A stretch of DNA of 64,000 bases from an uncultured Acidobacteriota bacterium (GTDB taxonomy: Bacteria > Acidobacteriota > Blastocatellia > Pyrinomonadales > Pyrinomonadaceae): the NCBI GenBank assembly GCA_963708055.1, contig OY970193.1, forward strand, positions 5,135,869-5,199,868. Direction: 5' to 3'. How positions within the stretch are numbered: the first letter of the stretch is position 1; every line of letters starts with the position of its first letter. A program made the translations under genes and the position numbers. This document shows positions 1,551 to 62,270 of this stretch, piece by piece. The notes beneath the pieces are model-generated. The model searched no databases. It was given only the letters and a program-made list of their open reading frames with translations, and was not told the origin of the DNA.

Positions 1551-1585
1551 CCGTTGAATCATTGGCCGTAACCGTTGAATCATTG
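1544..1585. repeat. perfect 21-bp tandem duplication (gccgtaaccgttgaatcattg x2) spanning the stop codon of the 306-1550 gene
   Basis: Direct reading gives copy 1 at 1544-1564 and copy 2 at 1565-1585. Copy 2 merges into the left end of the REPIN-like element. Confidence 0.95.
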
Positions 1586-1738
1586 TAGGGGCGGCCCTCC
1601 GTGGCCGCCCTAGCGTTCGAATTTCTTTGACTCACATCACGAGAGTCACGGAAGAGCGCCTCTATCGGATCGCTCCAGGGGAGACGATTTTGAGTTCCTG
1701 ACTAGGGCGGCCACGGAGGGCCGCCCCTACAATGATTC
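1577..1738. mobile_element. REPIN-like element, family A copy 1 (two inverted REP-like units)
   Basis: Left end is gaatcattGTAGgggcggccctccgtggccgccctag (1577-1613). Right end is its exact reverse complement (1702-1738). Each end is itself a palindrome (ggcggcc/ggccgcc) preceded by GTAG. The 88-bp spacer is homologous to copy 2. Confidence 0.85.
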
Positions 1739-1935
1739 CCAGTGTGGACGCCAGAAGTGCCGGAGAAATCCGGAAACTTCTAAAACGCCTAAAGCGTTAA
1801 AACCCTGTTCGCGAAGAACTCCTTCAGAGTTCAAACGTAATCCTGCTCAGTTGCTCCCCGGAGTTCGCCATCTCCGGAATCCATGTAGAACAAACGCCTT
1901 CGGCGTGTTACCCAGTCCTTTTGAGGTCCCAAATA

Positions 1936-4900
1936 ATGAATTTCTTTAGAAATTTCCCCCGCCAGACTGCCAATATTTGTCTGATTATTTTAATGGCCGC
2001 TGCGCTTGTCGCCGCTCAACAAGCGCGTGGCACGTTGCGAGGTCTGATCACCGATGAACTGGGCGCCGCCATCGTCGGCGCTAACGTAACTCTGACCGAC
2101 ACCTCCGGCGTCCAAAAAAAGACCACGACCAACGGTGAAGGCGTTTACAATTTTGCCGGACTGGCTCCCGGCAAATACACGTTGCAGGCGATTGCACCAG
2201 GCTTCGCGCCATCAGACACTAAAGAAGTTGATATGGCTGCGACGCGCCAGAGCGTAGATCTCACTCTGCGCGTGACGATCGAAGAGAAAGTCACCGTTTC
2301 CGAAACTCCAGTCAGCATCGACTCCAATAACAACGCCAATCAAACCGTGATCTCAGGAAAAGATCTCGACGCTTTGCCTGACGATCCGGACGAACTGGCA
2401 GCAGCGCTCCAGGCTTTGGCTGGACCATCAGTGGGACCAAACGGCGGCCAGATCTTTATCGACGGTTTCACCGGCGGCAACTTGCCCTCAAAAGACTCGA
2501 TTCGCGAGATTCGCATCAATCAAAACCCCTTCGCCGCTGAGAACGATCAACCATCCGCGCGCATCGACATTCTCACGCGTCCCGGCACTGACAAGTTTCG
2601 CGGCGGCGCGTCGTTGAATTTCAACGACGAAAGCCTCAACTCGCGTAATCCATTTGCCACCACTTCCAGCAAGCGGACGCCATTTCAGATTCGCCAGTAC
2701 GACATGAATCTGAGTGGTCCACTGGTAGCCAAGAAGGCGTCGTTCTTCGTCAATTTCGGTCGCATTGAAACTGACGATAACGAACTCGTTCGTGCCACCT
2801 TGCTTGACGAAGATCTTAATCCCGTCGAGTTTGGTCAAACGTTTGTTAATCCGAAGCGCAACTTGTTCTTTAGTCCACGTTTCGACTACGCGATTAACGC
2901 CAACAACACGCTCATTGTCCGTTACAACTACAATCGCTCCCTTACCGAGAATCAGGGTCTCGGCGGCTTTAATCTTCCCGAGCGAGCTTACAATTCTTTA
3001 TCCGTTAACCAGAATGTCCAGTTGACTGAAACGGCGATCCTGAATCCCACCACGATCAACGAAACGCGTTTTCAGTTTTCGCACAACAGATCCGAGCAAG
3101 AGGGAAGCAACGCGACGCCGGCATTGGACGTGAGTGGTGCATTTGGATCCGGCGGTTCACAGGTGGGCCATTCAACGAGCGAACGAAGCAGCTGGGAGCT
3201 GAACAATTTCACTGCGCAACAGCGAGGTACACACGCGATCAAGTTTGGCGGACGCGTCCGTCACATTGGGGTTGACGATATCAACGAAGGAAATTTCGGC
3301 GGCTACTGGACCTTTACCGGTGGTTACGGTTTGTCCAGTATTGAACGTTACCAACTGACGTTGAGACTTCAGGAGCAGGGAAAGACGCCGGAGGAGATTC
3401 GCGCGGCTGGTGGTGGCGCCACTGCATTCAGACTTCACACCGGAAATCCTTTTGCCGATGTCAGTCAAACCGATTACGGCGTGTTTATCCAGGACGACTG
3501 GCGCATTCGGCCGAACCTGACTTTCAGTTATGGTCTCCGTTACGAGACGCAAACTAACGCGCACAGCAAATACGACTTCGCACCGCGATTGGCGATTGCA
3601 TGGTCACCGGGAGCAGCAAACAGCGCCCGCCCGCCAAAGATGGTGATTCGCGTGGGCACTGGCTTCTTTTACAACCGCTTTAATGAAAATCAAACACTTC
3701 AGGCGAATCGCTACAACGGCGTTACTTTGATTCAAACCCTCGTTAGCGAACCGACCAAGGGACTGCTTCCGCCGAGCGTAAACGAACAGCTGTTTTCCGG
3801 CGACGCTTCCGTTTACGCGGTGCTGAACCAGTGGAGCCCCACGGCCGTTCCCTCGGTAGCCAATCTTTCTGCGACACAGGAATCAATTTGGCAGGTTGAC
3901 CCCAACCTTCAGATTCCCACTGTGTTTGTGATTGGCACGCAAGTGGAGCGACAGTTGCCGCGCAACATGACGATGGTTTTTGGTTTCTACAACATTCGCA
4001 TCGTTCACGTGATCCGCGCGCGCGACGTCAACGCGCCGTTGCCGGGCACGATCACTAACGCCACGCCAAACGGGATTCGTCCGGATCCGACCAGGGGTGA
4101 GATTAATCGCTACGAAGCCAGCGGCCAGTTTAATCAACGGCAGTTCTTTGTTGGTTTCAACAGCCGGTTCAGTCGTACTTTTCAGCTCAACGGCAACTAC
4201 TCTTTCAGCAAGTCGACTAACGATACGGATGGACAAGGCGGCCAGGTGTTCCCGATGAATTCGTATGATCTGACAGGCGAGTTTGGGCGCAGCTCTTTCG
4301 ACATTCGTCACCGGTTTACAGTTTTTGGAACCATCAATCTGCCGTGGTGGAAAGTGGTGCTGAATCCATTTGTGGTAGCGAACACTGGCCCAGGATTCAA
4401 CATCACCACCGGAGAGGACCGGAACCTCGACCGTCAATACAATGAACGCCCCAGCTTCGCAGCTGCGAATGCCAACTGTGACGCTCCAAACATCAGGTGC
4501 ACACGTTTTGGCAACTTCAATCTGACGCCCTTACCAGGCGAAAAGATCGTCCCCCGCAATTACGGTCAGGCGCCGGGATCATTTGTGGTTAACCTCCGTA
4601 TCAGCCGCACCTTTGCGTTTATCGACAAAGGCAGAGGTGGTGCAGCAGCCGCGGCGCCGGCAGGCCCCGGACCAGGTGGTCCGGGTGGCCCAGTAGCGGT
4701 TGCCGGAGGTGGTGGTCCGAGAATGGTGGCGGTTGGACCAGGTGGACCAGGCCCGCAAGGTGCTCCGCAGAGTGAGAAGCGATTCAATCTCAACGTCTCG
4801 ATCAACTTCCAAAACCTGCTTAACCACGTGAATCTTTCCGCGCCGGTGGGTAACCTGTCGTCGCCGAGTTTCGGTGAGTCGTTGGCATTGGGAGGAGCGT

Positions 4901-4980
4901 TCGGTGGGTTTGGTGGGGGTGGCGGCAACTCCGGCGCCGGTAACCGCAGGATCTACGCTCAACTACGCTTAAACTTCTGA
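1936..4980 (+). CDS. CarboxypepD_reg-domain TonB-dependent-receptor-like outer membrane protein
   Basis: Signal peptide, then GTLRGLITDELGAAIVGANVTLTD...GEGVYNFAGLAPGKYTLQA (carboxypeptidase regulatory-like fold). A plug-like segment follows, then a long beta-rich region ending in ...YAQLRLNF with a terminal aromatic. The track ORF starts at TTG 1921; ATG 1936 is preferred. Confidence 0.8.
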   Translation: MNFFRNFPRQTANICLIILMAAALVAAQQARGTLRGLITDELGAAIVGANVTLTDTSGVQKKTTTNGEGVYNFAGLAPGKYTLQAIAPGFAPSDTKEVDMAATRQSVDLTLRVTIEEKVTVSETPVSIDSNNNANQTVISGKDLDALPDDPDELAAALQALAGPSVGPNGGQIFIDGFTGGNLPSKDSIREIRINQNPFAAENDQPSARIDILTRPGTDKFRGGASLNFNDESLNSRNPFATTSSKRTPFQIRQYDMNLSGPLVAKKASFFVNFGRIETDDNELVRATLLDEDLNPVEFGQTFVNPKRNLFFSPRFDYAINANNTLIVRYNYNRSLTENQGLGGFNLPERAYNSLSVNQNVQLTETAILNPTTINETRFQFSHNRSEQEGSNATPALDVSGAFGSGGSQVGHSTSERSSWELNNFTAQQRGTHAIKFGGRVRHIGVDDINEGNFGGYWTFTGGYGLSSIERYQLTLRLQEQGKTPEEIRAAGGGATAFRLHTGNPFADVSQTDYGVFIQDDWRIRPNLTFSYGLRYETQTNAHSKYDFAPRLAIAWSPGAANSARPPKMVIRVGTGFFYNRFNENQTLQANRYNGVTLIQTLVSEPTKGLLPPSVNEQLFSGDASVYAVLNQWSPTAVPSVANLSATQESIWQVDPNLQIPTVFVIGTQVERQLPRNMTMVFGFYNIRIVHVIRARDVNAPLPGTITNATPNGIRPDPTRGEINRYEASGQFNQRQFFVGFNSRFSRTFQLNGNYSFSKSTNDTDGQGGQVFPMNSYDLTGEFGRSSFDIRHRFTVFGTINLPWWKVVLNPFVVANTGPGFNITTGEDRNLDRQYNERPSFAAANANCDAPNIRCTRFGNFNLTPLPGEKIVPRNYGQAPGSFVVNLRISRTFAFIDKGRGGAAAAAPAGPGPGGPGGPVAVAGGGGPRMVAVGPGGPGPQGAPQSEKRFNLNVSINFQNLLNHVNLSAPVGNLSSPSFGESLALGGAFGGFGGGGGNSGAGNRRIYAQLRLNF

Positions 4981-4991
4981 GCGAAAGGTTA

Positions 4992-5750
4992 ATGATGAAA
5001 AGATTTTATTTTTCAGTCGCATTGCTAATCTGTCTGACCGGATTTGAGGTTTCGGCGCAGGAACACGGGAATCCGAAGAACGGTTCGTCCGGCAATGCGA
5101 CTGGTCCAGCGGCGGTGACGATCACTGCCGAAAGTACTCCGATTGATCTGGCCCGCGCGGCTTTCACGGCACAGGGCGGCGAGAAGTTTCGCCAGGTGCA
5201 GAACATGATGCTGCGCGGTTCAGTTTCACTTTATCCGCCCAACAGCCCGCAATCGATACCAGGTTCGTTTTCGATCGTCACGGCAAACGACAGATTACGG
5301 ATGGAAATCGATGCGCGACCGATTATTGTCTTCAAGCAGATTTACGATGGGCAGCAATCGTATAGCTCGATGCCTGGAGTTGAAGTGCCGCCGTTGTCGA
5401 AGTTTGGACTTTCGGCGCTCAGCAAGTTTGACCAGCCCGGTTATAAAGTGTCAACGATTCCGAACAAGAAGAAGCTGCGTGGCTTTCGCATCACCGATCA
5501 AGACGGCTACGCCACTGACTTTTATATCGATGCAACTAACGGTCGGGTGATGGAGTTTTTTCTGACTTACAACGGCTTTACTTTTGGGACTGCCAACAGC
5601 AAGTTCAAAGATGTCGATGGAGTTTTGATCCCCTTCAGCTTCTCGCAACGCTTCGAAATGCCTCAAGGACCATTCTTCGCGGAATACAACGTCAAGGAAG
5701 TAAAACTTAACCAAACCCTCGGCGAAGACGCTTTCGCGATCCCGCGCTAA
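4992..5750 (+). CDS. secreted hypothetical protein (LolA-like size and beta pattern)
   Basis: Signal peptide MMKRFYFSVALLICLTGFEVSAQ. It lies 11 nt after the preceding OMP gene. No recognisable catalytic motif. Confidence 0.65.
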   Translation: MMKRFYFSVALLICLTGFEVSAQEHGNPKNGSSGNATGPAAVTITAESTPIDLARAAFTAQGGEKFRQVQNMMLRGSVSLYPPNSPQSIPGSFSIVTANDRLRMEIDARPIIVFKQIYDGQQSYSSMPGVEVPPLSKFGLSALSKFDQPGYKVSTIPNKKKLRGFRITDQDGYATDFYIDATNGRVMEFFLTYNGFTFGTANSKFKDVDGVLIPFSFSQRFEMPQGPFFAEYNVKEVKLNQTLGEDAFAIPR

Positions 5751-5756
5751 AACTAG

Positions 5757-5800
5757 CCACGGATGAACACGGATTGTTTACTGATCAGTGTTCATTCGTG
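5757..5800. repeat. family C hairpin (CACGGAT-type words) between convergent genes
   Basis: Arm cacggatgaacac (5759-) pairs with gtgttcattcgtg (-5800) at 12 of 13 positions. It fills the 52-nt gap between the stops at 5750 and 5803. Confidence 0.8.
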
Positions 5801-5802
5801 AC

Positions 5803-8757: not shown

Positions 8758-8975
8758 GACAATCCTCCAACGTGCGGGAGTGTGGAGACGTTAAGGACCT
8801 ATACTGATGTCGCTCTGAAAGCGAGGATCGACGCTCGAAGTTTAGCGCGGTTGCGTTTATCGATTGAATCGGATCTTCTAAAGGCGCAATTGCCCGCCAG
8901 TTTACCGTTATGCTCGTTGAGGTAACGCTGTTGCTGAGCGCGCCCGTTGACTAAACAAAATACAAATACCAACCA

Positions 8976-9565: not shown

Positions 9566-10297
9566 TTAACCAACCTTGGTGCCTACGCCCTTCTCACCGG
9601 TAACCACGCGCCTGATGTTTCCCGCTTCGCGCATGTTGAAGACAATGATAGGCAGGTTGTTATCCATGCACAATGAGATGGCCGAGGCATCCATCACCTT
9701 GAGCTGTCGTTCGAGAACCTGACGATAACTGATCTCGTTGAAAAATTCTGCCGTCGCGTCAGTCATCGGATCGGCAGAGTATACGCCATCAACTTTGGTG
9801 GCTTTCAAGATGATGTCAGCCTTGATCTCCAATGCTCGGAGGGCTGCCGCCGAGTCGGTGGTGAAATACGGATTGCCGGTGCCGGCGGCGAAAATAACCA
9901 CTCGTCCCTTTTCCAAATGACGGACGGCGCGCCGGCGAATAAACGACTCGGCTAACTGCGGAATATCAACGGCTGACAACACGCGCGTATCGACGTCGAT
10001 CTTCTCGAGCGCGTCCTGCAAAACGACGGCATTCATTACCGTCGCCAGCATCCCGATGTAGTCAGCCGACGAACGGTCCATGTTGCCGGCGCTTTTGGAA
10101 ACGCCGCGGAAGATGTTGCCGCCACCAACGACGACGGCAACCTGCACACCCATTCGATGGACCGCCTTCAGCTCTTCGGCAACACTGCGCGCAACGTCAA
10201 CGTCGATGCCGTAGTTTTGCTCGCCCATCAGGGCTTCGCCTGAGATCTTCAACAACACGCGGCGATAGGCGAGATTGGAGATGTCGATCGTCGTCAT
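9566..10297 (-). CDS. pyrH: UMP kinase
   Basis: [13 protein letters not shown]...[10 protein letters not shown]...[17 protein letters not shown] motifs. Sits in tsf-pyrH-frr synteny. Confidence 0.95.
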
Positions 10298-10303
10298 TGA
10301 GTT

Positions 10304-13165: not shown

Positions 13166-13292
13166 ATCCACAGATTTACTCAGAGTCTATTAATTAATCT
13201 GTGAATATAATTAATCTGTGAATAATTAATCTGTGAAATTAATTAATCTGTGAAATCTGTGGATAACTAATTAATCTGTGAAATCTGTGGAT
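13166..13292. repeat. family C-derived tandem array (ttaatctgtgaa x5) bracketed by atccacagattt / aaatctgtggat inverted ends
   Basis: Copies at 13194-13205, 13211-13222, 13226-13237, 13243-13254 and 13271-13282. atccacagattt is at 13166-13177. atctgtggat is at 13255-13264 and 13283-13292. The array lies 114-240 nt upstream of the rplM start. Confidence 0.9.
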
Positions 13293-13299: not shown

Positions 13300-13330
13300 A
13301 AAAGGCCCTTCGGGAAGCCGAAGGGCCTTC
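13300..13330 (-). terminator. intrinsic terminator downstream of the M48 peptidase gene
   Basis: A 12-bp GC-rich stem, aaggcccttcgg (13302-13313) with ccgaagggcctt (13318-13329), and a GAAG loop. On the minus strand it is followed by TTTTAAT. Confidence 0.7.
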
Positions 13331-13352
13331 GTGGTCAAGGTAACACAAGTTG

Positions 13353-24806: not shown

Positions 24807-25706
24807 ATGACGCTATCTACTAACGACCTTAAAGGCATTCTCCTGCCTACCACCACGCCGTTCGATCGCAACGGTCAGATTCTTACCAGCGACATCAGCT
24901 CAAATCTGAAATCCTGGTCCGCAAAGGGCGTGATTGGATTTGTCGTCCTCGGTTCAACCGGCGAACGCGTGCATCTCGACGAACGTGAATATCTCGAGGT
25001 GATCGACGTTTCGCGAGCGGCGATAAATAGTGATTCAGTCTTGATCGCCGGCGCTGGACAACAAAGCACCGCCGGCACCATTCGCGAGATCAAAAGCGCC
25101 GCGCGCGCCGGTGCGGATGCGGTGCTCGTAATCACACCGTATTTCTATCGACCCGCCATGACGCAGGAGACGCTCATCGACTACTACACGGCCGTTGCCG
25201 ATGAAGCGCCCGTGCCGGTGCTGCTTTACAGCATGCCGCCGCTGACGGGAATCAAGATCGAACCGGAGACGATCGCGCGTTTGAGTGAACATCGAAACAT
25301 CATCGGTGTGAAAGACAGCTCAAACGACGTCGCCGGTTTCAAGCAGACCGTCGATCTCTGTCCGGCTGACTTTGCGGTGATGACGGGTAACGGCACTGTT
25401 TTGCTCGATACCCTCCGCGCCGGCGCAACCGGGGGAATTCTTGCGGTCGGATGTGTCGTCCCGGAAGTTTGTGTGGATGTATTTCGTGCTTTCAAGAGTG
25501 GAGAAGAAGAACATGCCGCCAGCCTTCAAACAAAACTCACCCCGCTGGCCGCGGCGGTCACGACTCGTTTTGGTATCGGAGGCTTAAAAGCCGCCCTCGA
25601 CCTCGCCGGCTATCGTGGCGGGGAGGTGCGCGCTCCGCTACGGGGGCCGGATCAGAATGCCCGTAACGAGATAGCCGCTTTGGTAAAAGAAATGAGCCAC
25701 GGATAA
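24807..25706 (+). CDS. dihydrodipicolinate synthase/N-acetylneuraminate lyase family protein
   Basis: DapA-family pattern (TPF...G......L......G..G.vvlGsTGE). 299 aa. Paralog assignment not attempted. Confidence 0.8.
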   Translation: MTLSTNDLKGILLPTTTPFDRNGQILTSDISSNLKSWSAKGVIGFVVLGSTGERVHLDEREYLEVIDVSRAAINSDSVLIAGAGQQSTAGTIREIKSAARAGADAVLVITPYFYRPAMTQETLIDYYTAVADEAPVPVLLYSMPPLTGIKIEPETIARLSEHRNIIGVKDSSNDVAGFKQTVDLCPADFAVMTGNGTVLLDTLRAGATGGILAVGCVVPEVCVDVFRAFKSGEEEHAASLQTKLTPLAAAVTTRFGIGGLKAALDLAGYRGGEVRAPLRGPDQNARNEIAALVKEMSHG

Positions 25707-32257: not shown

Positions 32258-32375
32258 TGCCTTGGTACTTCGTACTTTGTACTTGGTTCTTGGCAGAAAG
32301 ACCAAGTACTAAGCACAAAGTACTAAGCACAAAGTACCAAGCACAAAGCACAAAATACCAAGCCCAAAGCACCAA
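32258..32375. repeat. family E-related hairpin/tandem array (gcacaaagtac[ct]aa words)
   Basis: Left arm is tgccttggtacttcgtactttgtacttggttcttggc. The right side is gaccaagtactaagcacaaagtactaagcacaaagtaccaagcacaaagcacaaaataccaagc, with three 14-nt tandem units. Confidence 0.88.
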
Positions 32376-32377
32376 TC

Positions 32378-32665
32378 TCACACCACAATCGAATTCGCTG
32401 GTTGCCGCGGATCGTAACGCACGACGATCTGCTTTCCGGGGGCATAGTCGTTCGAACGCTCTTGCTGGCGCAAGCTGAGCGTTTGCGAGGATTCATATTG
32501 AACCCCGGCAAGAATGTAGGTGTACGTTACCTGGGAGATGCGACCTTCGTTGTCCGAAACTGCGTCGATGATGCGGCCGTCAGTCATGCGACCGGTCTTC
32601 GAGAGACGCTCAATTCGTGAGGCTTCGTCTTCAGTGCGTTTACGGAAACGATCGAGAAACGACAT
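32378..32665 (-). CDS. small hypothetical protein (DUF3592-like beta domain, no TM)
   Basis: 95 aa. Lies 7 nt downstream of the preceding gene. The pattern ...VTYTY...G..Y.S.......Y..G..I.V.YDP..P..S resembles DUF3592 (from memory). Confidence 0.5.
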   Translation of the reverse strand: MSFLDRFRKRTEDEASRIERLSKTGRMTDGRIIDAVSDNEGRISQVTYTYILAGVQYESSQTLSLRQQERSNDYAPGKQIVVRYDPRQPANSIVV

Positions 32666-33584: not shown

Positions 33585-33604
33585 GCTTTTACCTCAATTA
33601 ATTT

Positions 33605-33747
33605 CCAATTGCCGATTGCCAATTCTTTAATTGCCGATTTCCAATTGCCGATGGCCGATTTGCGAATCTCGTTCGGCACTGCCTTTGGCCGTCGAAGCCA
33701 CGCTTTTTACCGGATCAATTGGCAATTGGCAATCGGCACTTGGCAAT
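33605..33747. repeat. family B inverted heptad arrays with a 55-nt spacer
   Basis: The left array ccaattgccgattgccaatt...ttgccgatttccaattgccgatggccgatt spans 33605-33660. The right array caattggcaattggcaatcggcacttggcaat spans 33716-33747. It overlaps the last ~40 codons of the 33627-34367 CDS. Confidence 0.9.
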
Positions 33748-34367
33748 GATGTTTTGGTCAGTTCGCGCCACGTGTGATACATGCGGTGGGCGAAGGTCCA
33801 ATAAGAGCCAACAGCAAGCACCCAGAGAACGGCCGGCATGCGGTTGGCAAAGTAATTAGTCGAATTTGGAAACGTACTGAGCGCGCCGATGATAAAGAGT
33901 ACAACCCGCTCTGGGCGCCGCAAAAAGCCCACGTCACATTTGGGAATGAGGCTCTCTGCTCGGGCGCTCGCGTAGCTTACCATAACCGAGCCCATTAGTC
34001 CGGCGCCCGCGAGAAAAACATTAAGAGTGGAGTGCCACTCAGTATCGCGAGCGTAAAAGACCATCAGGCCCACAAAAACCACCATGTCCGAGAGGCGGTC
34101 CAACGAAGAGTCAAGAAAGCCTCCAAACCGTGTCACACGGCCGGAAAGACGGGCCACCTGGCCATCGAGCATGTCAAAAAGATTGGCGACAATCAGGGTA
34201 ATACCGGCATAGAAAAACATGCCCATCCCAAAGAGAAGACCGCAACCGACGTTTAAAGAGACGCCGATAACGGTCAAAATATTGGGATTGATATGTCCCA
34301 TGGCGAGCCAGCGAACAATCGCGTCGATGATTCGCTGCGCTCCACGTCCGATACTAGCCCCGAACAT
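33627..34367 (-). CDS. CDP-alcohol phosphatidyltransferase family protein
   Basis: The D(x)2DG(x)2AR...G(x)3D(x)3D motif is present (FDMLDGQVARLSGRVTRFGGFLDSSLDRLSD). The C-terminal ~40 aa are encoded by the family B repeat. Confidence 0.85.
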   Translation of the reverse strand: MFGASIGRGAQRIIDAIVRWLAMGHINPNILTVIGVSLNVGCGLLFGMGMFFYAGITLIVANLFDMLDGQVARLSGRVTRFGGFLDSSLDRLSDMVVFVGLMVFYARDTEWHSTLNVFLAGAGLMGSVMVSYASARAESLIPKCDVGFLRRPERVVLFIIGALSTFPNSTNYFANRMPAVLWVLAVGSYWTFAHRMYHTWRELTKTSLPSADCQLPIDPVKSVASTAKGSAERDSQIGHRQLEIGN

Positions 34368-34427: not shown

Positions 34428-34477
34428 ATCCACAGATTACACAGATTCATTTATAGAAATCTGTGTAATCTGTGGAT
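34428..34477. repeat. family C hairpin (perfect 20-nt arms, 10-nt loop) downstream of greA
   Basis: atccacagattacacagatt (34428-34447) pairs with aatctgtgtaatctgtggat (34458-34477). Confidence 0.97.
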
Positions 34478-36199: not shown

Positions 36200-36214
36200 A
36201 ATTGCCGATTGGCA
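36200..36214. repeat. isolated family B half-site
   Basis: aattgccgattggca lies in the pfkA upstream region. No inverted partner seen. Confidence 0.4.
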
Positions 36215-36247
36215 TTCTTTCAAAACTGTCGTAGCATACCAACAAAA

Positions 36248-36520
36248 ATGGAAATCGATGACGACGCAAAAGAGATAGTTCGCGAGATTGGTACTGCGAT
36301 CAACGAATCGGTTGAGAATTCGACGAAGGTTGCAGAAGCCATTGAGCGTCTGCGCGAAGCCGGATATGAAATGGAACTAACACTTCGGCTCGAGATTGGC
36401 CTCAGACCTCACGCCGGAGATGACGACGAACCCTCGCTTGAAAACGCCGACCTCGATCTTACTGAAGAAGATCTCCAGGTGCTTCAGCGAATGAAGATCC
36501 GGATCGACCCGGAAAAATAG
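36248..36520 (+). CDS. small acidic hypothetical protein (90 aa)
   Basis: ATG 36248 (MEIDDDAKEIV...). Helical and Glu/Asp-rich. The stop TAG overlaps the start of the downstream hairpin. Confidence 0.5.
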   Translation: MEIDDDAKEIVREIGTAINESVENSTKVAEAIERLREAGYEMELTLRLEIGLRPHAGDDDEPSLENADLDLTEEDLQVLQRMKIRIDPEK

Positions 36521-38638: not shown

Positions 38639-38645
38639 AGGGGAT

Positions 38646-38737
38646 TTCTCACGCAGCGACGCAACGGCGCAGCGAAAGCCATCAAGGAACAACTACATTG
38701 ATGGTTTCCGCTGCGCCGTTGCGTCGCTGCGTGAGAA
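38646..38737. repeat. family G long hairpin (40-nt arms) between convergent atpC and pdxJ
   Basis: ttctcacgcagcgacgcaacggcgcagcgaaagccatcaa (38646-38685) pairs with ttgatggtttccgctgcgccgttgcgtcgctgcgtgagaa (38698-38737). Two mismatches. Confidence 0.93.
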
Positions 38738-38740
38738 AAC

Positions 38741-40281: not shown

Positions 40282-40310
40282 GTTTTTGGTGCACTATAAC
40301 ACAGACCTTG

Positions 40311-42237: not shown

Positions 42238-42260
42238 AGCGCCACCTTGGTGGCGCTTTG
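42238..42260 (+). terminator. weak candidate intrinsic terminator after the S41 peptidase gene
   Basis: agcgccaccttggtggcgct palindrome followed by tttg. The T-run is short. Confidence 0.4.
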
Positions 42261-42475
42261 GTCGAAGTAGCGCCTTCCTTGCATCGCACTTTGACTAAAG
42301 CGGTCTCAAGGCACCGCATTCCAAAGAGGCCCCAATTCTTTTGTCGTCCATCATTCTGTACACTCGTACGACTTTTAGTTGCATTCAGAGCCCTTACTTA
42401 TTTATAGTCCCGGACGTTCACCTGGCCTATTTCTGACGGCAATCGATCTATCCCACGTAGTTTAGGCAAACAACT

Positions 42476-45400: not shown

Positions 45401-45592
45401 CGCGGCGATCCGCCTCCACGTCCGCCGGGGTTTGGCGGTGGCGGCGGTGGTGGCGGAGGCGGCGGCGGTGGTGGTTTCGGCGGCCTGCTCCAGGGCATCC
45501 CGCTCGAAGCCGGCACTTACAACCTGAAGCTGTCGGTAGGTGGTAAGGACTACAACACTCGGGTCGTGATCGAGAACGATCCCGGCATGTAA
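42476..45592 (+). CDS. secreted sortilin/VPS10-like BNR (Asp-box) repeat protein
   Basis: At least 10 Asp-box motifs of S-x-D-x-G-x-T-W type (SVDAGKTF, TTDGGKSW, TIDAGKTW, SDDKGKTW, SLDGGKTF, SYDQGETW, SMDRGDTW, SKDGGATW, TKDYGATW). Signal or anchor segment at the N-terminus. Alternative start at ATG 42497. Confidence 0.85.
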   Translation: MLKGPFRMKDRSRSVYDLISLIVIVSAVALATITVHSQNQATPAPGAAPAQTPRAPSPSPTPTPINWSTDPVLKRFVWRSIGPASMGGRIDDIAVSEQNPFVWYIGFATNGVWKTTNNGTTFQPIFETYGTHSVGDVAIAPSDPNIVWVGTGEPNNRQSSSFGDGIYKSVDAGKTFTKMGLEDSQTIPRIVIDPRDPNIVYVAVLGHLFGPNKERGIYKTTDGGKSWNNIKFIDEDTGFTDMVMDASDNKVLYAASYQRRRTNYGFNGGGPGSGIWKTIDAGKTWKKLEGGGLPEGVLGRIGIDVSRSNPNVLYAQMEVGTSTGTGGEEPTFGGPTPSPSPSPSASPSPSASPAASPTPAPPDPKKSGVWRSDDKGKTWRIVSNENNRPMYYSKIRVDPQNAETVYVGGLNFSKSLDGGKTFRSLQSGIAHSDNHAIWINPKNGDQLLVGNDGGLNASYDQGETWEFINTIPAAQFYAIGVDMRKPYYVYGGLQDNGSWGGPSQTRSQFGITNADWYRVGGGDGFYTQIDPTDFNTVYAESQGGAIQRLDLRTGRSVSIRPRGVPRGRGGPGGGRQGGGQPAASPSPGASPAASPTPDTAAQLAAFAAQQGFGGFGAANLQSNVVPTPPANETFRFYWSSPIHISPHNPRVLYFGGNKLFRSMDRGDTWTASPDLSKQIDRNTLSIMGVSGKDPMASKHDGYSGYGYVVTVAESPKQPGIIWAGTDDGNVQVSKDGGATWTNVAKNIPGIGDTYHITRVEPSHYDAATCYVSVDGHRLDDMKPYLFVTKDYGATWTSIVNNLPKWGNVNVVVEDAKNRDLLFVGTEFGLFVSLNGGAEWKPMMSGMPRLRIDDILIHPRDNDLIAGTHGRGIFIIDDISALQQMTKTMMEADTQAHLFDVRPGTIWQNDIRLSRYWGAAKYFRGQNPAPGTAINYYLKAAPSGDVKLTISDYTGRVVRNIVGTKDIGLNRIQWNLRGDPPPRPPGFGGGGGGGGGGGGGGFGGLLQGIPLEAGTYNLKLSVGGKDYNTRVVIENDPGM

Positions 45593-45599: not shown

Positions 45600-45675
45600 A
45601 GCCACGGATTACACGGATAACACGGATCAAGAAGAAGAAATTGTTTGATCAGTGAAATCCGTGTAATCCGTGGCT
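45600..45675. repeat. family C long hairpin (three tandem cacggatNa words per arm) between convergent genes
   Basis: agccacggattacacggataacacggatcaa (45600-45630) pairs with ttgatcagtgaaatccgtgtaatccgtggct (45645-45675). It overlaps the rlmI-like stop codon. Confidence 0.93.
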
Positions 45676-48475: not shown

Positions 48476-48581
48476 AACAGGATTAACAAGATTTTCAAGA
48501 TTAACAGGATAAGATTTATATTCAAGATTAACCGGATAAGATTCATATCTTGTGAATCCTGTTAATCATGTAAATCTTGTA
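48476..48581. repeat. family D array/hairpin (about 8 tandem 9-nt words plus an inverted arm)
   Basis: aacaggatta acaagattt tcaagatta acaggataa ... tcaagatta accggataa, then atcttgtgaatcctgttaatcatgtaaatcttg. Confidence 0.9.
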
Positions 48582-54327: not shown

Positions 54328-54469
54328 AGCCACAAGGAAGCTGGCCACTAAAAGGCACGAAAGCACAATGGTTTTTGATACGACACAGCGATCCTGCTTG
54401 ATGGGAAGGTCCAGCCTCCTTGATAGAAACAGCAATGATTGTTTTGGGCGTTTTGTGCCTTTTTGTGGT
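54328..54469. repeat. family E inverted repeat with a 70-nt spacer, intercistronic
   Basis: agccacaaggaagctggccactaaaaggcacgaaagcacaa (54328-54368) pairs with ttgttttgggcgttttgtgcctttttgtggt (54439-54469). Confidence 0.85.
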
Positions 54470-54472
54470 GAT

Positions 54473-55714: not shown

Positions 55715-55724
55715 TTTTTAATTT

Positions 55725-55805
55725 CCAATTGCCGATTGCCAGTTGCCAATTTTCAAACCTATGCGACGCGCGTTCTAAACTTGGCAATCGGCAATCGGCA
55801 GTTGG
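55725..55805. repeat. family B hairpin, intercistronic
   Basis: ccaattgccgattgccagttgccaattt (55725-55752) pairs with cttggcaatcggcaatcggcagttgg (55780-55805). Confidence 0.92.
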
Positions 55806-55814
55806 AAGTCACCT

Positions 55815-57101: not shown

Positions 57102-57182
57102 AAAACAAAAGACACGATGGAAATCAGTGCATTAGCGTTAAAACAGTAATTTCTTTTGTGCTTTTTGTGCCTTTTTGTGGCC
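57077..57182. repeat. family E hairpin (gcacaaaaa words), intercistronic
   Basis: ggccactaaaaagcacaaaaagcacaaaacaaaag (57077-57111) pairs with cttttgtgctttttgtgcctttttgtggcc (57153-57182). Confidence 0.93.
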
Positions 57183-57186
57183 TGCT

Positions 57187-57948
57187 TTATCTGATTCTTT
57201 CGTCTTTCTCGATTTGACCGTCGCGAATCGAGATTACGCGGTGAGCACGTGACGCGATGTCATGCTCGTGCGTAACGACGATGATGGTATTGCCTTCCGA
57301 GTGAAGACGCTCAAAGAGATCCATGATCTCCATGCTGGTGTGCGAATCGAGCGCGCCGGTTGGTTCGTCGGCGAGCAGGATCGACGGATGATTCACGAGC
57401 GCCCGCGCAATCGCAACGCGCTGGCGCTGACCGCCGGAAAGCTCATTTGGCTTGTGAGTCATGCGTTCCGTGAGATCCACGGCACGGAGCGCCGTCTTTG
57501 CCATCTCGTGCCGTTGCGACGCACCGACGCCACCGTAGATCAACGGCAGTTCGACGTTGTGAAGCGCAGTCGCTCGCGCAAGCAGATTAAACGTTTGGAA
57601 AACGAAGCCGACTTCCTGATTACGAATTCGGGCCAGTTCGTCGTCGTCCATTTCGGAAACGTTTTTGCCGTTGAGCCAGTACTCGCCCTGCGTCGGAGTA
57701 TCGAGGCAGCCGATGAGATTCATCAGCGTTGACTTGCCTGAGCCCGATGGACCAATGATTGCGATGTACTCGCCTCGCGGAATATCAAACGAGACGCCGT
57801 GCAGCGCATGCACCTTCTCGGTACCCATCTGGTAAGTCTTCCAGATGTCGCGCATCGAGATGAGCATCTCTGGATCATGCCCGTTCTTTTCAGTCCGCGG
57901 CTTGATCTCATTCTGCGGCGGAGTAATCGTAAGCGTAGCGTCACTCAT
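57187..57948 (-). CDS. MacB/LolD-type ABC transporter ATP-binding protein
   Basis: Walker [10 protein letters not shown], signature LSGGQRQR, Walker [12 protein letters not shown]. Confidence 0.93.
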
Positions 57949-59469
57949 CTAGCTGGCCTCGTTTCCAGGCGCGCCACCAGGTTTCTTGGTCTGGCGCTTA
58001 ACGGTCATGCCTTCTTTCAAGGTTTTCAAAACACGGCTTGGCCCACGCACTACTTCCATATCCTTATTAACACCACTGGTGATCTCGATATCTGCTTCAC
58101 CGGTGATGCCAGTGGTTACTTCGATAAACCGGACCTTGTTGCCCTCGATCACGTAAACACCCTTTTGGGCTTTCGGTCGCTCACTATTTGGTGTTGCAGC
58201 CGGAACGCTGCTCGCAATTGAAGCGGCGGGCGAAGCTGACGCTGTGGCCGCTTTCTCCACGATTGCTTCAAGCGGTACTGCCAGCACGTTGTTCTTGGTG
58301 TCGGTCGTAATCGTAGCGGTTGAGCTCATACCCGGGCGCAAGGAAGTCTGAACTTCTTCCGGCAACTCCTGGAGCTCGAGTGTGACTTTGAACTCTTTCG
58401 CTTCCTGAACGTTGACGCGATTCGATAAACCGCCGGTAGCGTCAGACTTGGAGATTGCGAGCGGATTCTTTTGCGTGACGACGGCTCTGATTTCTTTGTC
58501 ACCAAGCGCGTCGACTTTAACCATCGCTGCCTGGCCCACCTTGACGTTATTGATCTCAGTCTCGTCAACGTTAACTTCGACGTTGATCTGCGACATGTCG
58601 GCGATGGTCATCAACGGCGTTGTTGATAGACCAGCCACGGCAAACTCACCCACGCGAGTGGGGATGTCGGCGACCACGCCGTTTAACGGCGAGAGCTGAG
58701 TGGCCTTGGAACGCTGGCTCTGCTGGCCACGCAACATAGCCTGTTGCTGGCTGGCGCGCATTTCTGACGACTTGATGCTGGTTTGCGCGTCCTTCACCGC
58801 GATGCGTTGCTGGTTCGCGCGTTCGGTGGCTTCTTTTACCGCGATTTTCTGTGCTTCGAGATTTGCCCTGGCGGTTTCGAGTGCGATCTTGGCCGTTTCG
58901 AACCGGTCGCGTGCGTTGTCGTACTCGACGCGCGATGAAACGCCGGCTTCGATTAGTTCGGTGTAGCGTTTGAGCTCACGTTGCGCGGTGTTGACTTCGA
59001 CCTGGGCCCTGTCCACGTTGGTTTGCATGGCGACCACCTGCTGTCGCGCGGCCGCGACTGACGCTTCAGCGACTATCAGCGACTGTTGCGCCGAGGTCAC
59101 CGCGTTGCGGGCGTTTTGCACTTCGTTGAGCGAAGCTTGGGTGGCGGCCCATTGGGCTTCCTGGTTCGACTGCAATTGTGTTGGGTCGACGCGAACGAGC
59201 GGTTTGCCTTTGGTGACCATGTCACCGGCAGTCACGTAGATCTCCTCGATGCGCCCGGGGACCTCGCTGGTCAGCTTGATATAACGTATTGGGCGTACTT
59301 CGCCCGAGGCGGTGACTGTCTGTTTCAGCTCAGGTCTGACTTCGAGCTTCACCGTAACGACTTCTGGTTCGTCCTTACGGGTAGCAATAACTGATATAAC
59401 TACGGCAATAATGGCTACAACCGCCACCGTGACGCCGATAATAATCTTCTTTTTCCGACTCAATGCCAT
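57949..59469 (-). CDS. HlyD/MacA-type periplasmic adaptor (membrane fusion protein)
   Basis: N-terminal TM segment, long coiled-coil hairpin, and beta-barrel/MP domains. Its stop abuts the ATPase start. Confidence 0.88.
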   Translation of the reverse strand: MALSRKKKIIIGVTVAVVAIIAVVISVIATRKDEPEVVTVKLEVRPELKQTVTASGEVRPIRYIKLTSEVPGRIEEIYVTAGDMVTKGKPLVRVDPTQLQSNQEAQWAATQASLNEVQNARNAVTSAQQSLIVAEASVAAARQQVVAMQTNVDRAQVEVNTAQRELKRYTELIEAGVSSRVEYDNARDRFETAKIALETARANLEAQKIAVKEATERANQQRIAVKDAQTSIKSSEMRASQQQAMLRGQQSQRSKATQLSPLNGVVADIPTRVGEFAVAGLSTTPLMTIADMSQINVEVNVDETEINNVKVGQAAMVKVDALGDKEIRAVVTQKNPLAISKSDATGGLSNRVNVQEAKEFKVTLELQELPEEVQTSLRPGMSSTATITTDTKNNVLAVPLEAIVEKAATASASPAASIASSVPAATPNSERPKAQKGVYVIEGNKVRFIEVTTGITGEADIEITSGVNKDMEVVRGPSRVLKTLKEGMTVKRQTKKPGGAPGNEAS

Positions 59470-59641
59470 CTTGGAGTTCCTTTGGAAGGGGCCTTAAATT
59501 CTCGAAGTAGCTTCTACGTGGAAACTTATCAAACAGTTTCAATTTAGGGCAAACCCGAGCGAGCCAACTTCCTAACGCTAAACCGCGCATTTTATTAACA
59601 GTTATTAGACACCGTAAAGCGCCAAAGGTTCAAAAACAGTT

Positions 59642-59690
59642 ATCTACAGATTACACAGATTCTATTGATTAATCTGTGTAATCTGTGGAT
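59642..59690. repeat. family C hairpin in a divergent promoter region
   Basis: atctacagattacacagatt (59642-59661) pairs with aatctgtgtaatctgtggat (59671-59690). One mismatch. Confidence 0.95.
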
Positions 59691-59776
59691 AGAAGGAAAC
59701 TCAGTCACTACCCTTCGTTAAGATGCGTTGGCGTGGCGGGCGCGTTCGCGTTAAAATGATTTGCTTTTTTGACGAT

Positions 59777-60337
59777 ATGATTACGTGCGACAGGTGCAAA
59801 ACAGAAAACCTTGATGGCTCGCAGTATTGCGACGAATGCGGCGCGCCCTTGAGGCCTAACGGCCGGCCCAACCCAGTCACTCGGATACCGGTGAATGGCG
59901 GCGGTAACGGCAACCATGCCCCGGTCCCAGGACCACATCCTGAATTCGCCGGTGGCCACGTATCTGCGAATCTTAGTTATCAAGCCCTGCGTACGGCTGC
60001 TAAACCGCATGCCCGCCTCGTTATTGAAAAGGGACGCTCGACCGGAAAGCAGTTTATGTTGAGTGATGTCGAAGCTCAGATCGGACGTTGGGATGCCGAC
60101 GGCGGTATCTTTCCCGATGTCGATCTCGACACTGACGACCCGGAAGCAAAGGTCTCGCGGCGTCATGCTCGCATCACCCTGAGCAACGGCCAGTACTTTC
60201 TTGAAGATCTCGGATCGACAAATGGTACATTCATTAATCGTGGCAAAAGATTACCCCCGGGACAGCGTCAGGCTTTATGTGATGGAGACGAGATCATCGT
60301 CGGAAAAACATTTCTGCGCTTCCACATTGTAAAATAG
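59777..60337 (+). CDS. zinc-ribbon plus FHA domain protein
   Basis: CDRCKTEN...YCDECG ribbon. FHA core (IGR......D.DL.......VSRRHARI...G.YFLEDLGSTNGTFIN). Start chosen at ATG 59777; the ORF is open from 59723. Confidence 0.8.
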   Translation: MITCDRCKTENLDGSQYCDECGAPLRPNGRPNPVTRIPVNGGGNGNHAPVPGPHPEFAGGHVSANLSYQALRTAAKPHARLVIEKGRSTGKQFMLSDVEAQIGRWDADGGIFPDVDLDTDDPEAKVSRRHARITLSNGQYFLEDLGSTNGTFINRGKRLPPGQRQALCDGDEIIVGKTFLRFHIVK

Positions 60338-60417
60338 GTGCCTGCGACGTTCGTCTTCTTCGGTAGAGCCGCTATTTAGTCTAGTTAGATCTGGTTAGAG
60401 TGGTAAAACGTTAACAG

Positions 60418-62181
60418 ATGACTCAGTGTCAATCATGCGGCGCGCAGGTATCGCTCGGTGAGCACTTCTGCGGTAATTGCGGCGCGCAACTCCCCAGTTC
60501 CGCGGAACTGCGGATGGAGTCTGCCCCTGTAGTTGAAGAGGAACCAACGCCGCCACGTGAAGGCCGGGAATGGGCCACCACGCTCGAACCTTCAGACGAC
60601 ATCCCAGTAGAACCGGAACCATCCGTGCACGAGACTTCAGCGGACGGAACTGCTGTGGCTGAGGCGCGTGAGCCTTCCGGCAGCCTTGAAACGACGGTCG
60701 TTACTCCTGACAGTGTTGAGTCTTCCGCTCTAATCTCTTCAAACTCCCTCGGCGGTTCGTTTACCGACAACGTAGCAGTGGGCACTTCAACACCGCCAAA
60801 GGAAGGCACGACCGGCGGTAAGCGTCCGAACGTAAAACAACTCGCTTCCAACACTGTGCTGAATGGTCGCTATGAGATCGTGCGACGCATCGGTGGTGGA
60901 GGTATGGGCGCGGTTTATCTGGCTAAAGATCGGAACCTCGGCGACGCACCGCGCGCAGTGAAAGAGATGGTCGAGTCGCATCTCGATCCGACTCAGCACG
61001 AGAAAGCCATCGGCGACTTCAAACGCGAGTCGCTGTTGTTAACCTCGCTCGAGCATCCTTCAATCCCTACGATCTACGATTATTTCTACGACGAGCCCCG
61101 GTTTTATCTCGTCATGAAATATATTTCGGGTGGCGATCTGGCTTCACGCTTGCGCGCTGCGCTCGGCGGCAGAATCGATGAAAAGACGGTCACTGACTGG
61201 GGCATGCAAGTGGCCGACGTGCTCGATTACTTACACTCGCGACCAAAACCGATCATCTATCGCGATCTGAAGCCGGCGAACCTGATGATCGACGGAAACA
61301 CCGGCCGGGTGATGTTGATCGACTTCGGCATCGCGCGTTGGGTGTCGCAGCAGGAGAAAGGCGTAACCGCGGTCGGCACGATGGGATATGCGCCACCGGA
61401 ACTTTTCAGCGGACGCGTGCAGCCTGCTTCAGACGTTTACAGTTTGGGCGCGACGATGTTTCACCTGCTGACCGGTTCCGATCCGCAGGACAATCCGCTG
61501 CTGATTTTCGACTTCTCGAAGAACCCACGGCCACGCCAGATAGCTCCATCAATCTCATCCGAGATGGAGCAGATCTTGATGCGAACGGTGGAATACAAAC
61601 CCGAGGATCGTTTCCGCACGGCTGGTGAACTGCGAAACGAACTCGCGATCCATCTCGAGAAACTTTTATCAGGACGCGTTAGTTATGGTCTGCCTGCCCC
61701 GGCACTCGGCAACGAGACGGTCCAGGTCCAAACTGTTTACTGCGGTTTTTGCGGCGGCCGAATTGCTGCTGATGACGTTTTCTGTGCTCACTGTGGCGCG
61801 CGGCAGCCGCTCGCCGGTGTTGGCTCAAGCGCAATGCTGCATGCGGTGAGGCCCACGGCCAAACTCGTTGTCGCCGGAACCACGGAGCTCGACGCGTCGT
61901 TCATTCTCCAGAAGGACAGTAACCTGCTTGGTCGCACGGATCCGCATTCAAATATCTTTCCGGAGATCGATCTTTCGCGCTTTGATCCGGAGACCAAGGT
62001 TTCACGACGTCATGCGCGCATCTGGCTCGAAGGAGAAACGTTTCTCGTCGAAGATCTCGGTTCGGTAAACGGAACTGTGATCAACGACTCCGTGCGACTG
62101 GCGCCGCGCCAACCTCGCGTACTCGATAGTGGAGATAAGTTGCGAGTTGGTGAAACGACATTGCATTTTCTGGTTGGATAA
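60418..62181 (+). CDS. Ser/Thr protein kinase with N-terminal zinc ribbon, second zinc ribbon and C-terminal FHA domain
   Basis: CQSCG...CGNCG. Kinase motifs GGGGMGAVY, AVKE, YRDLKPANL, DFGIA and GTMGYAPPE. CGFCGG...CAHCG. FHA (LGR...VSRRHARI...FLVEDLGSVNGTVIN). Confidence 0.9.
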   Translation: MTQCQSCGAQVSLGEHFCGNCGAQLPSSAELRMESAPVVEEEPTPPREGREWATTLEPSDDIPVEPEPSVHETSADGTAVAEAREPSGSLETTVVTPDSVESSALISSNSLGGSFTDNVAVGTSTPPKEGTTGGKRPNVKQLASNTVLNGRYEIVRRIGGGGMGAVYLAKDRNLGDAPRAVKEMVESHLDPTQHEKAIGDFKRESLLLTSLEHPSIPTIYDYFYDEPRFYLVMKYISGGDLASRLRAALGGRIDEKTVTDWGMQVADVLDYLHSRPKPIIYRDLKPANLMIDGNTGRVMLIDFGIARWVSQQEKGVTAVGTMGYAPPELFSGRVQPASDVYSLGATMFHLLTGSDPQDNPLLIFDFSKNPRPRQIAPSISSEMEQILMRTVEYKPEDRFRTAGELRNELAIHLEKLLSGRVSYGLPAPALGNETVQVQTVYCGFCGGRIAADDVFCAHCGARQPLAGVGSSAMLHAVRPTAKLVVAGTTELDASFILQKDSNLLGRTDPHSNIFPEIDLSRFDPETKVSRRHARIWLEGETFLVEDLGSVNGTVINDSVRLAPRQPRVLDSGDKLRVGETTLHFLVG

Positions 62182-62185
62182 CGTT

Positions 62186-62270
62186 ATTGCCAATTTCCGA
62201 TTTCCTATTGCCAATTTGTTATGCCCGTTCGGTTAGAGAAATTGGCAATCGGCAATCGGAAATTGGCAAT
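62186..62270. repeat. family B hairpin downstream of the kinase gene
   Basis: tattgccaatttccgatttcctattgccaattt (62186-62217) pairs with aaattggcaatcggcaatcggaaattggcaat (62239-62270). Confidence 0.92.

Follow-up and report, generated by a model that had tools for sequence, protein, structure and literature searches.

Introduction

Repetitive extragenic palindromic (REP) sequences and the inverted doublets called REPINs (defined in PMC3116915 and PMC3733652) are the described repeats that come closest to a set of long hairpins found between the genes of a 64,000-nucleotide stretch of Acidobacteriota DNA. This stretch, hereafter the window, derives from an uncultured bacterium of the Pyrinomonadaceae (assembly GCA_963708055.1, contig OY970193.1, positions 5,135,869 to 5,199,868 of the forward strand), and its hairpins fall into families labelled A to G. 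Like REPs and REPINs, they are short, extragenic, high-copy elements arranged as inverted doublets whose arms are conserved over the spacer. Compensatory changes, solo units, several families per genome, a lack of target duplication and a preference for the 3' ends of genes are also common to both. Only family A further shares with REPs the GTAG tag and a self-complementary unit, a 20-40-nt imperfect palindrome. The arms of families B to G, in contrast, are non-palindromic tandem arrays of 7-9-nt words without GTAG, their spacing is not fixed (0-158 nt), and no REP-associated tyrosine transposase (RAYT) was found in the window or in a weak sample of ~1.9 Mb of related loci. As of 2013, GTAG repeats were known from Proteobacteria, Cyanobacteria, Chloroflexi and the Planctomycetes-Verrucomicrobia-Chlamydiae (PVC) group but not from Acidobacteria, which encode distinct terminal inverted repeat (TIR)-associated tyrosine transposases, one of them with a repeat family in Koribacter (PMC3733652).

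A second point of comparison is provided by the short tandemly repeated repetitive (STRR) sequences of heterocyst-forming cyanobacteria, in which tandem 7-nt words occupy intergenic or inter-cistronic positions, can form hairpins (for example at hupS-hupL), and have been proposed to stabilise transcripts or couple translation (PMC2670836). Words of 7 nt are likewise found in family B, in the E2 arrays of the window and in most hairpins of other Acidobacteriota. The elements reported here nevertheless belong to another phylum and use other words, with 9-nt words (families C and D) as common as 7-nt ones. We know of no analysis of STRR equivalent to the inverted, polar and dispersed-family organisation described below. 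Intergenic heptamer arrays of the GGGAATC type in Xanthomonas and Nostoc occur between the same gene pairs in related species, while their length and sequence vary widely (PMC4692102). Such turnover at orthologous junctions is shared by the hairpins of the window, but the Xanthomonas and Nostoc arrays are G-rich, direct and studied for quadruplexes, and are not inverted pairs that form long hairpins.

[quoted passage not shown] Foldback elements have inverted ends made of short tandem subrepeats, with heterogeneous loops between them. The likeness to Foldback is one of analogy only, as the hairpins differ from both groups in having no target-site duplication, no parent insertion sequence and a size that goes down to 40-50 nt. 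Uptake-signal sequences of Neisseria and Haemophilus are short, over-represented words that often stand as inverted pairs behind genes. They consist of one word per genome and are frequent inside genes, whereas at least six families, almost all intergenic, are present here.

The Acidobacteriota belong to the most abundant bacteria of soil, and to our knowledge the signals of gene expression in this phylum have hardly been studied. For want of RNA-seq data they were left out of a survey of terminators in 13 genomes (PMC8355165), and our search of the literature on hairpins or repeats in Acidobacteria and Pyrinomonadaceae found no description of these elements. The hairpins had been noticed in an earlier inspection of the letters and reading frames alone (the sequence-only reading). 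On balance, and with a confidence slightly above even, we take them to be REPIN-like, non-autonomous dispersed hairpin repeats whose arms (family A excepted) are word arrays, and which are probably used as transcript-end structures. We hold the dispersed-family part of this reading more confidently than the part that concerns function.

Results

Long hairpins in the intergenic gaps of the window

An inverted-repeat scan of the window (arms of at least 20 nt, at least 80% complementary, loop of at most 110 nt) returned 20 loci, compared with none in each of 30 dinucleotide-preserving shuffles, and a repeat search listed 41 inverted pairs within 120 nt. Long, near-perfect stems were chosen as the criterion because whole-window RNALfold did not discriminate, each 140-nt stretch reaching -30 to -60 kcal/mol at 55% GC. 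Each gap was also folded, and a dominant stem-loop was seen in most gaps between long open reading frames (ORFs). For 18 hairpins tested by folding, z ranged from -5.3 to -15.8 and no shuffle was equally stable. No match to the curated Rfam covariance models was obtained in the window at gathering thresholds.

The curated set comprises 25 elements between 1577 and 62271 (Table 1), slightly fewer than the approximately 27 loci of the sequence-only reading, whose positions were confirmed by repeat search, per-gap folding and inverted-repeat scan. With genes called crudely as longest ORFs, the window has 28 gaps that measure 60 bp or more, and long hairpins are present in 22 of them; shorter gaps contain two further hairpins, at 5758 and 33601. 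The statement that nearly every gap above about 60 bp is filled is therefore true of most gaps but is better put as about four in five. The reading had been right about the contexts, namely convergent, co-directional and divergent gaps and overlap with stop codons (24737, 25704, 36518), and about the high density, which is far above chance and above that of other phyla. The source genome was covered over these 64 kb and its relatives as fragments. For comparison, an AtpD scan with one genome per species yielded 18 related loci (L001-L018) and 62 control loci from other lineages.

Families and word structure of the arms

The arms of families B to G each consist of two to four tandem words: GGCAATY in B, CACRGATWA in C, ACARGATTW in D, GCACAAAAA in E, CACAGAGAA in F and 8-mers such as GCAGCGAC in G. 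The opposite arm mirrors this array, the order of the word variants included. Periodicity was significant in the arms of 15 of the 25 elements (p <= 0.01 versus shuffled arms), with a period of 7 in all five B arms and in E2, a period of 9 in all four D arms, and a period of 9 or (in two) 11 in five of the eight C arms. It was not significant in this test for families A, F and G, three E arms and two C arms; Tandem Repeats Finder reported units of 8-10 nt in E, F and G. The earlier description of arms built from tandem short words holds to this extent, and fails for family A, which is not word-built. That several families are present is supported, as is the related core of C, D and F: their words (CACAGATTA, ACAGGATTA and CACAGAGAA, respectively, read directly from the sequences) are visibly alike.

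Family A had been grouped with the others as 'non-REP', which is wrong. Its arms start with GTAGGGGCGG, carrying the GTAG tag that B to G lack, and each contains a small palindrome (GGGCGGCC-ctccgt-GGCCGCCC), whereas the arms of B to G are not self-complementary. The two arms form an inverted doublet, with a spacing of 88 nt in two copies and 36-54 nt in one; between the two copies the arms are identical (100%) and the 88-nt spacer is ~75% conserved. A solo copy is found at the atpD-atpC junction of L005. By every sequence-level test, family A would be classed as a GTAG REP doublet, or REPIN. For the other families, 'non-REP' is apt for the unit and not for the behaviour, which is of REP/REPIN type (many copies, arms conserved over spacers, solo arms, no target duplication). 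Families B to G thus appear to combine REPIN behaviour with the lack of a palindromic unit or GTAG tag, and to judge from full-text literature searches this is undescribed in Acidobacteria. An exact 21-bp tandem duplication at 1544-1585 (GCCGTAACCGTTGAATCATTG twice) includes the stop codon of gene 306-1550 and abuts the left arm of the family A element at 1577; it may be a trace of the arrival of this copy.

Dispersal and polarity

At the family C1 unit hairpin (34428-34477), the read depth of soil metagenomes rises to ~390 from ~9 in the flanks (~40-fold), and reads and contigs diverge exactly at both ends. D and C1 arms elsewhere in the window show similarly raised depth with sharp ends; the D arm at 48476, for example, occurs in many copies in metagenomes and has its sharp ends at 48477 and 48510. 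The 20-mer arm ATCCACAGATTACACAGATT occurs in at least 120 metagenome stretches with unrelated flanks. These C1 loci come from among the matches listed, and all were ascertained on one arm of one family. Across 143 C1 occurrences, the partner arm lies downstream in 108 and upstream in 2, and is missing in 35 (solo arms). Partner arms diverge by ~1 letter in 20, while the loops are mutually unrelated and vary in length from 0 to 158 nt, with a sharp peak at the 9-10 nt of one word. The same arms with different loops were also found in metagenomes for families B and E. Families B to G are dispersed repeat families. Hairpins made of other words (GTGGTCA, GATCGGTCT, GATGACT, CAGGAG) were observed nested in or beside family C loops (L102 6084, L130 1787, L143 2407, L160 1451).

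Because an inverted repeat reads alike on both strands, the order of the arms expresses a polarity intrinsic to the element, independent of how it lies with respect to the genes. This polarity extends beyond C1, with the purine-rich arm first in 71 and second in 26 of the non-C hairpins (37 to 10 in L001-L018). At the atpD-atpC junction all nine word hairpins are purine-first; families B and F of the window are exceptions.

Target-site duplication was sought at the ends of 87 C1 hairpins, where direct repeats of 2-5 nt occur only at chance level; elements of the REP/IS200 type likewise lack it. An ordinary DDE-type MITE was rejected because of this absence, together with the unrelated loops. 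Clustering of 633 ORFs around 120 C1 loci showed no gene that recurs beside the copies: the clusters correspond to common paralogous families (histidine kinase, short-chain dehydrogenase, ABC ATPase, TonB-type receptor, TPR), and the neighbours are unrelated housekeeping genes with no recurrent transposase. CRISPR, uptake sequences, attC sites and known Rfam families were rejected on layout, the elements being inverted rather than direct, of many families, intergenic only and with 0 Rfam hits.

Co-variation of the arms

The 9 nt beside the searched 20-mer, corresponding to a third word, are positions that were not used in finding the copies. Here each arm matches its own partner at 5.86 of 9 positions, compared with 4.66 of 9 for the partners of other copies (permutation p < 1e-4). 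Eight family C hairpins taken from the window and L001 were aligned, which gave 16 consensus pairs. In this alignment 92.8% of cells are paired versus 87.3% with shuffled 3' letters, and 11 cells are changed on both sides versus 4.7 in shuffles; in both cases none of 500 shuffles reached the observed value. In the orthologous pair at 45600 and L001 18696, words 1 and 2 show compensatory G-C to A-U exchanges. The sequence-only reading had named arms that fail to co-vary as an argument against selection for pairing, and had proposed to test for compensatory changes. The arms do co-vary, so this objection falls away; the co-variation is compatible with RNA-level selection, DNA-level pairing or arm-to-arm copying alike.

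Distribution across lineages

The AtpD scan puts the window in Pyrinomonadaceae (Acidobacteriota subdivision 4); its closest locus, L001, shares 97% protein identity and 76-81% DNA identity with the window. Hairpins whose arms are significantly periodic number 17.2 per 100 kb in the window, 7.2 in Pyrinomonadaceae / subdivision 4, 2.6 (mostly heptamers) in other Acidobacteriota and 0.1 in other phyla, where a single case was found in 738 kb. Short-read metagenome-assembled genomes (MAGs) probably under-count the hairpins because contigs tend to break at repeats. The picture of a pattern peculiar to this one genome must be corrected: the word hairpins are typical of Pyrinomonadaceae and, at lower density, of the Acidobacteriota in general.

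Turnover at orthologous sites

The atpD-atpC junction measures 5 bp in the window, 8 bp in L001 and 55-214 bp in 15 other genomes. Most of these longer junctions contain a hairpin, with words that differ by genome (AAGGATG, GGGTGTA, GGGGACGC, GAGGTCA, CGGAATG, ATTACGA), and one (L005) contains the family A unit instead. In L007 (11533) and L008 (3688), the word AAGGATG resembles a ribosome-binding motif plus ATG in tandem, and atpC starts 8-10 nt past the hairpin without an obvious Shine-Dalgarno sequence; these words may bear on translational coupling across the hairpin.

Family C is present in both the window and L001 at three junctions (34368, 36521, 45593) with differing word content, and the L001 orthologue of the 36513 hairpin has both arms changed together. 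At junction 34368, family C words also occur in L009. Elsewhere the family itself differs. Junction 32317 has E2 in the window versus family C in L001, and junction 38639 has family G in the window, a reversed C-type hairpin in L001 and a third family in L002 and L003. At the site of this 100-nt family G hairpin (38639-38740), L012 carries a textbook terminator with a GC-rich stem and T-run (~9900-9935). The repeat hairpin and the classical terminator may be interchangeable at this one site.

Metagenome comparisons reveal gains, partial losses and replacements. The L106 hairpin lies within an intergenic spacer that exceeds its 16-nt counterpart in L200 by ~74 nt; the full hairpin of L161 corresponds in L127 to a single arm with an extra word; and L086 and L135 (78% identical) have nearly identical arms next to unalignable intergenic DNA. 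In related soil-metagenome strains, whole B hairpins are swapped for 20-23 unrelated letters, as for the B hairpin at 40310, which is replaced by 23 unrelated nt in one strain, and the B hairpin at 55723 is absent or halved. The presence/absence comparison suggested in the sequence-only reading accordingly finds hairpins gained, halved and replaced between related genomes.

The family B element at 33600-33747 has a different structure. Between its arms lie 99 nt in which the ancestral C-terminal tail of a protein resembling CDP-alcohol-phosphatidyltransferase (33627-34367, minus strand) remains encoded. B words encode the last residues of this protein (..GHRQLEIGN) and its stop codon, the second B arm lies in the variable tail, and five orthologues have a tail that is shorter by 8 residues. 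Arms can thus end up around pre-existing sequence, because these B arms flank ancestral coding DNA.

Position, T-tracts and possible function

Position was analysed in a pooled set of 984 kb made up of the window, L001-L018 and the metagenome loci, every one of the latter chosen for a C1 arm. Of the 286 hairpins in this set, 220 lie between genes. Among gaps that measure 60 bp or more, those between convergent genes are occupied most often (67/87), followed by co-directional (99/233) and divergent (33/102) gaps. In co-directional gaps, the hairpin starts at a median of 9 nt past the upstream stop and ends 24 nt ahead of the next start, the ORF-called start being over-extended; it is closer to the stop in 63 cases and to the start in 36 (p = 0.009). 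G.U mismatches are more frequent on the sense than on the antisense strand (51 vs 29, p = 0.018), an asymmetry that is not significant in the window alone (16 vs 9).

The 12 nt after the hairpin contain 3.96 T versus 2.94 A on both strands (p = 3e-10). A canonical intrinsic terminator has a short GC-rich stem and, directly behind it on the transcribed strand, a U-tract of 7-9 nt. Here at least five T in the next 10 nt are found for 20% of hairpins on the sense and 25% on the antisense strand, and several family C copies have T-runs. Consensus terminators in the window are not above shuffles (19, 29 and 27 found versus 24.5, 25.4 and 23.6 expected). The sequence-only reading had stated that most hairpins lack a U-tract. 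This is borne out by the low share of strict tracts and the lack of excess canonical matches, but it overlooks the weak, highly significant T-rich flank on both sides.

Gene ends here carry repeat hairpins in place of classical terminators, a class to which the hairpins do not belong themselves. In vitro, mycobacterial RNA polymerase was not terminated by hairpins that lack a U-tract (PMC3993855). Given this mycobacterial need for a U-tract, the weakness of the tracts here and the presence of hairpins inside an operon and in promoter regions, we consider that 3'-end protection, insulation or cistron coupling of the STRR kind would be at least as likely as termination.

Features of the window

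Coordinates of all 25 elements are given in Table 1. Two of them contain direct arrays without a full inverted partner: C words repeated as a 16-17-nt unit four times at 13191-13289, and ~12 copies of a 7-mer at 32293-32388. Outside all repeat families, two short GC-rich hairpins of the ordinary terminator type were noted at 13303-13331 and 42240-42262. A GGC/GGT triplet repeat encoding a glycine run (45433-45484), within a 1038-aa BNR/sortilin-like ORF, is also multi-copy in soil metagenomes. Proteins encoded in the window include a TonB-type receptor with a carboxypeptidase-regulatory domain, an S8 peptidase, ATP synthase beta and a Ser/Thr kinase with an FHA domain.

Table 1. Hairpin and array elements of the 64-kb window, in order of position.
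Element	Start	End	Arms, words and loop	Context
Family A GTAG REP doublet	1577	1738	37-nt arms, 100% complementary; 88-nt spacer	
Family C hairpin	5758	5800	CACGGATGAA words	convergent gap; minus-strand T-run after
Family B hairpin	12085	12169	7-nt words ATTGCCR / GGCAATY	between co-directional minus-strand genes
C words	13166	13289	AATCTGTGAA; chiefly direct tandem array, partial pairing only	
Family A REP doublet	17477	17622	29-nt arms, 100%; 88-nt spacer, a homologue of the one at 1577	convergent gap
Family D hairpin	19560	19617	ACAAGATTT words	divergent gap
Family F hairpin	19673	19772	CACAGAGAA words; 40-nt arms, 93%	divergent gap
Family A REP doublet	22036	22145	spacer shortened	
Family D hairpin	24737	24806	reversed order (pyrimidine-rich arm first)	spans entire gap between two plus-strand cistrons, from the stop codon
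Family C hairpin	25696	25756		overlaps stop codon of gene 24807-25706; then T-run
Family D hairpin	29420	29482		convergent gap
E2, 7-nt arrays	32261	32388	(CTTGGTA)n pairs with part of a ~12-unit (GCACAAA/GTACCAA) array	
Family B arms	33600	33747	arms 99 nt apart	flank ancestral 3' coding tail of gene 33627-34367(-)
Family C1 unit hairpin	34428	34477	20-nt arms, 100%; 10-nt loop	
Family C hairpin	36513	36603		overlaps stop codon of 36209-36520; upstream of atpD
Family G hairpin	38642	38741	GC-rich; 44-nt arms, 93%; -80.6 kcal/mol	convergent gap after atpC
Family B hairpin	40310	40398		divergent gap
Family C hairpin	45600	45675	3 words per arm	convergent gap
Family D hairpin	48476	48583		between co-directional genes
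Family E hairpin	51726	51792	GCACAAAA words	convergent gap
Family E arms	54345	54468	75-nt loop	
Family B hairpin	55723	55807		between co-directional minus-strand genes
Family E hairpin	57077	57182	33-nt arms, 91%	
Family C1 unit hairpin	59641	59691	arms near-identical to those of 34428, loop different	divergent gap
Family B hairpin	62185	62271	33-nt arms, 94%	3 nt past stop codon

Discussion

Under the REPIN-like reading that we favour, a family would be copied into gene-free DNA as a polar unit consisting of a word arm, a loop of about one word and a reverse-complement arm, and the copies would settle preferentially right behind stop codons and between convergent genes. Resident arms would then gain and lose words by slippage, while their complementarity would be kept by compensatory change or arm-to-arm copying and the loops would drift freely. 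Loss of one arm would leave a solo arm, and whole hairpins would be swapped for other families within the time that separates species. The host would use the stem-loops at transcript ends or between cistrons as a read-through barrier, as protection from 3' exonucleases or as an insulator. What the data establish is that the hairpins are non-random, fall into families, are dispersed and polar, lack target duplication, co-vary between arms, turn over and are biased in position. We infer that copying proceeds by enzymatic transposition, possibly by a single-strand transposase of the RAYT or TIRYT type, and that the RNA hairpin is put to use by the cell. The TIR-associated tyrosine transposases of Acidobacteria are a clue to what may copy the repeats rather than a finding.

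Several observations weigh against this reading. On the side of mobility, no clean-ended excision or insertion was seen among the compared loci, where the presence/absence cases carry extra flanking sequence. Orthologous arms remain recognisable amid unalignable intergenic DNA, which might reflect a function tied to their sequence and not mobility. Neither the B arms placed around coding DNA at 33600-33747 nor the hairpins inside long loops are explained by a compact hairpin that inserts. The window has no RAYT gene and ~1.9 Mb of related loci no RayT homologue, a weak point given that less than one gene would be expected. On the side of function, the G.U asymmetry could be a product of transcription-coupled C-to-T mutation and not of selection, and the T-rich flanks are weak, symmetric and seen in divergent gaps too. 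A hairpin occupies a third of the larger divergent gaps, and hairpins are found inside the atp operon. A search for RNA-seq or metatranscriptome runs holding the window sequence found none, and returned only soil DNA metagenomes of relatives at ~90-94% identity.

The hairpins might alternatively have arisen locally and without mobility, through in-place slippage and template switching between arms in the manner of cyanobacterial STRR arrays, and have been kept as useful stem-loops, with the likeness of words due to mutational bias or convergence. The number of words does vary between arms and between orthologues, as slippage would have it, and heptamer repeats are over-represented in bacteria, which has been ascribed to polymerase slippage (PMC4692102). 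The genome-specific words at atpD-atpC, the partnerless direct arrays at 13191-13289 and 32293-32388, and the lack of both target duplication and a linked gene also fit this origin. We nevertheless regard it as unlikely, for it has to account for an exact 20-mer with sharp ends and unrelated flanks at 120 or more loci, for a fixed arm order (108 to 2), for partner arms that differ at ~1 letter in 20 around unrelated loops, and for families that recur across species and metagenome loci; convergence on 20 identical letters is implausible. An improbable alternative is that the words are arrays of DNA or RNA sites for a nucleoid, gyrase-type (as at REP and at bacterial interspersed mosaic elements, BIMEs) or RNA-binding factor, with a tandem and inverted layout that would favour cooperative binding, the hairpin being secondary. 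Protein binding would suit short tandem words, arms that are conserved at orthologous sites where flanks are not and that are much better conserved than loops, the presence of hairpins in divergent promoter regions and the purine-first bias of 71 to 26. At least six unrelated word families in 64 kb, and different words at one and the same junction, would however require many quickly exchanged proteins; compensatory changes preserve pairing while the sequence shifts, and the neighbouring genes have no function in common.

That the hairpins are ordinary long intrinsic terminators, their families a by-product of terminator duplication, seems to us very unlikely, although part of the positional evidence points that way. 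Occupancy is highest in convergent gaps and hairpins lie a median of 9 nt behind stops; a T-rich flank follows on both strands (p = 3e-10), several family C copies have T-runs, and a canonical terminator stands at the orthologous site in L012 while the canonical type is otherwise not enriched in the window. Yet just 20-25% of hairpins have at least five T in 10 nt, with no excess on the sense strand, hairpins also occupy divergent gaps and the atp operon, and those lacking a U-tract failed with mycobacterial RNA polymerase in vitro (PMC3993855). Termination would also leave the word structure, the polarity and the family-wide identity unexplained.

The REPIN-like reading can be extended to a bolder one that we think possible but doubtful. 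In this extension, the hairpins would form an undescribed class of polar 'foldback' repeats of Acidobacteriota, and of Pyrinomonadaceae above all, laid down by an enzyme system (perhaps the acidobacterial TIR-associated tyrosine transposases) as inverted word arrays, sometimes around existing sequence. They would serve as the main transcript-end and inter-cistronic RNA structures of the host instead of canonical terminators, and the purine-first order would then be functionally required.

If it is true that fast-evolving repeat hairpins mark most gene ends in these bacteria, operon prediction would be affected. So would annotation, since a gene can be lengthened or terminated by an arm, as at 33627, and the assembly of MAGs, whose contigs break where such repeats occur. 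For finding the copying enzyme, handles are provided by the absent target duplication and by an arm order that is fixed. The elements are also a natural system in which hairpins of RNA or DNA seem to be built and replaced through tandem-repeat slippage together with dispersal and correction between the arms, and word-built hairpins may withstand mutation better than unique ones.

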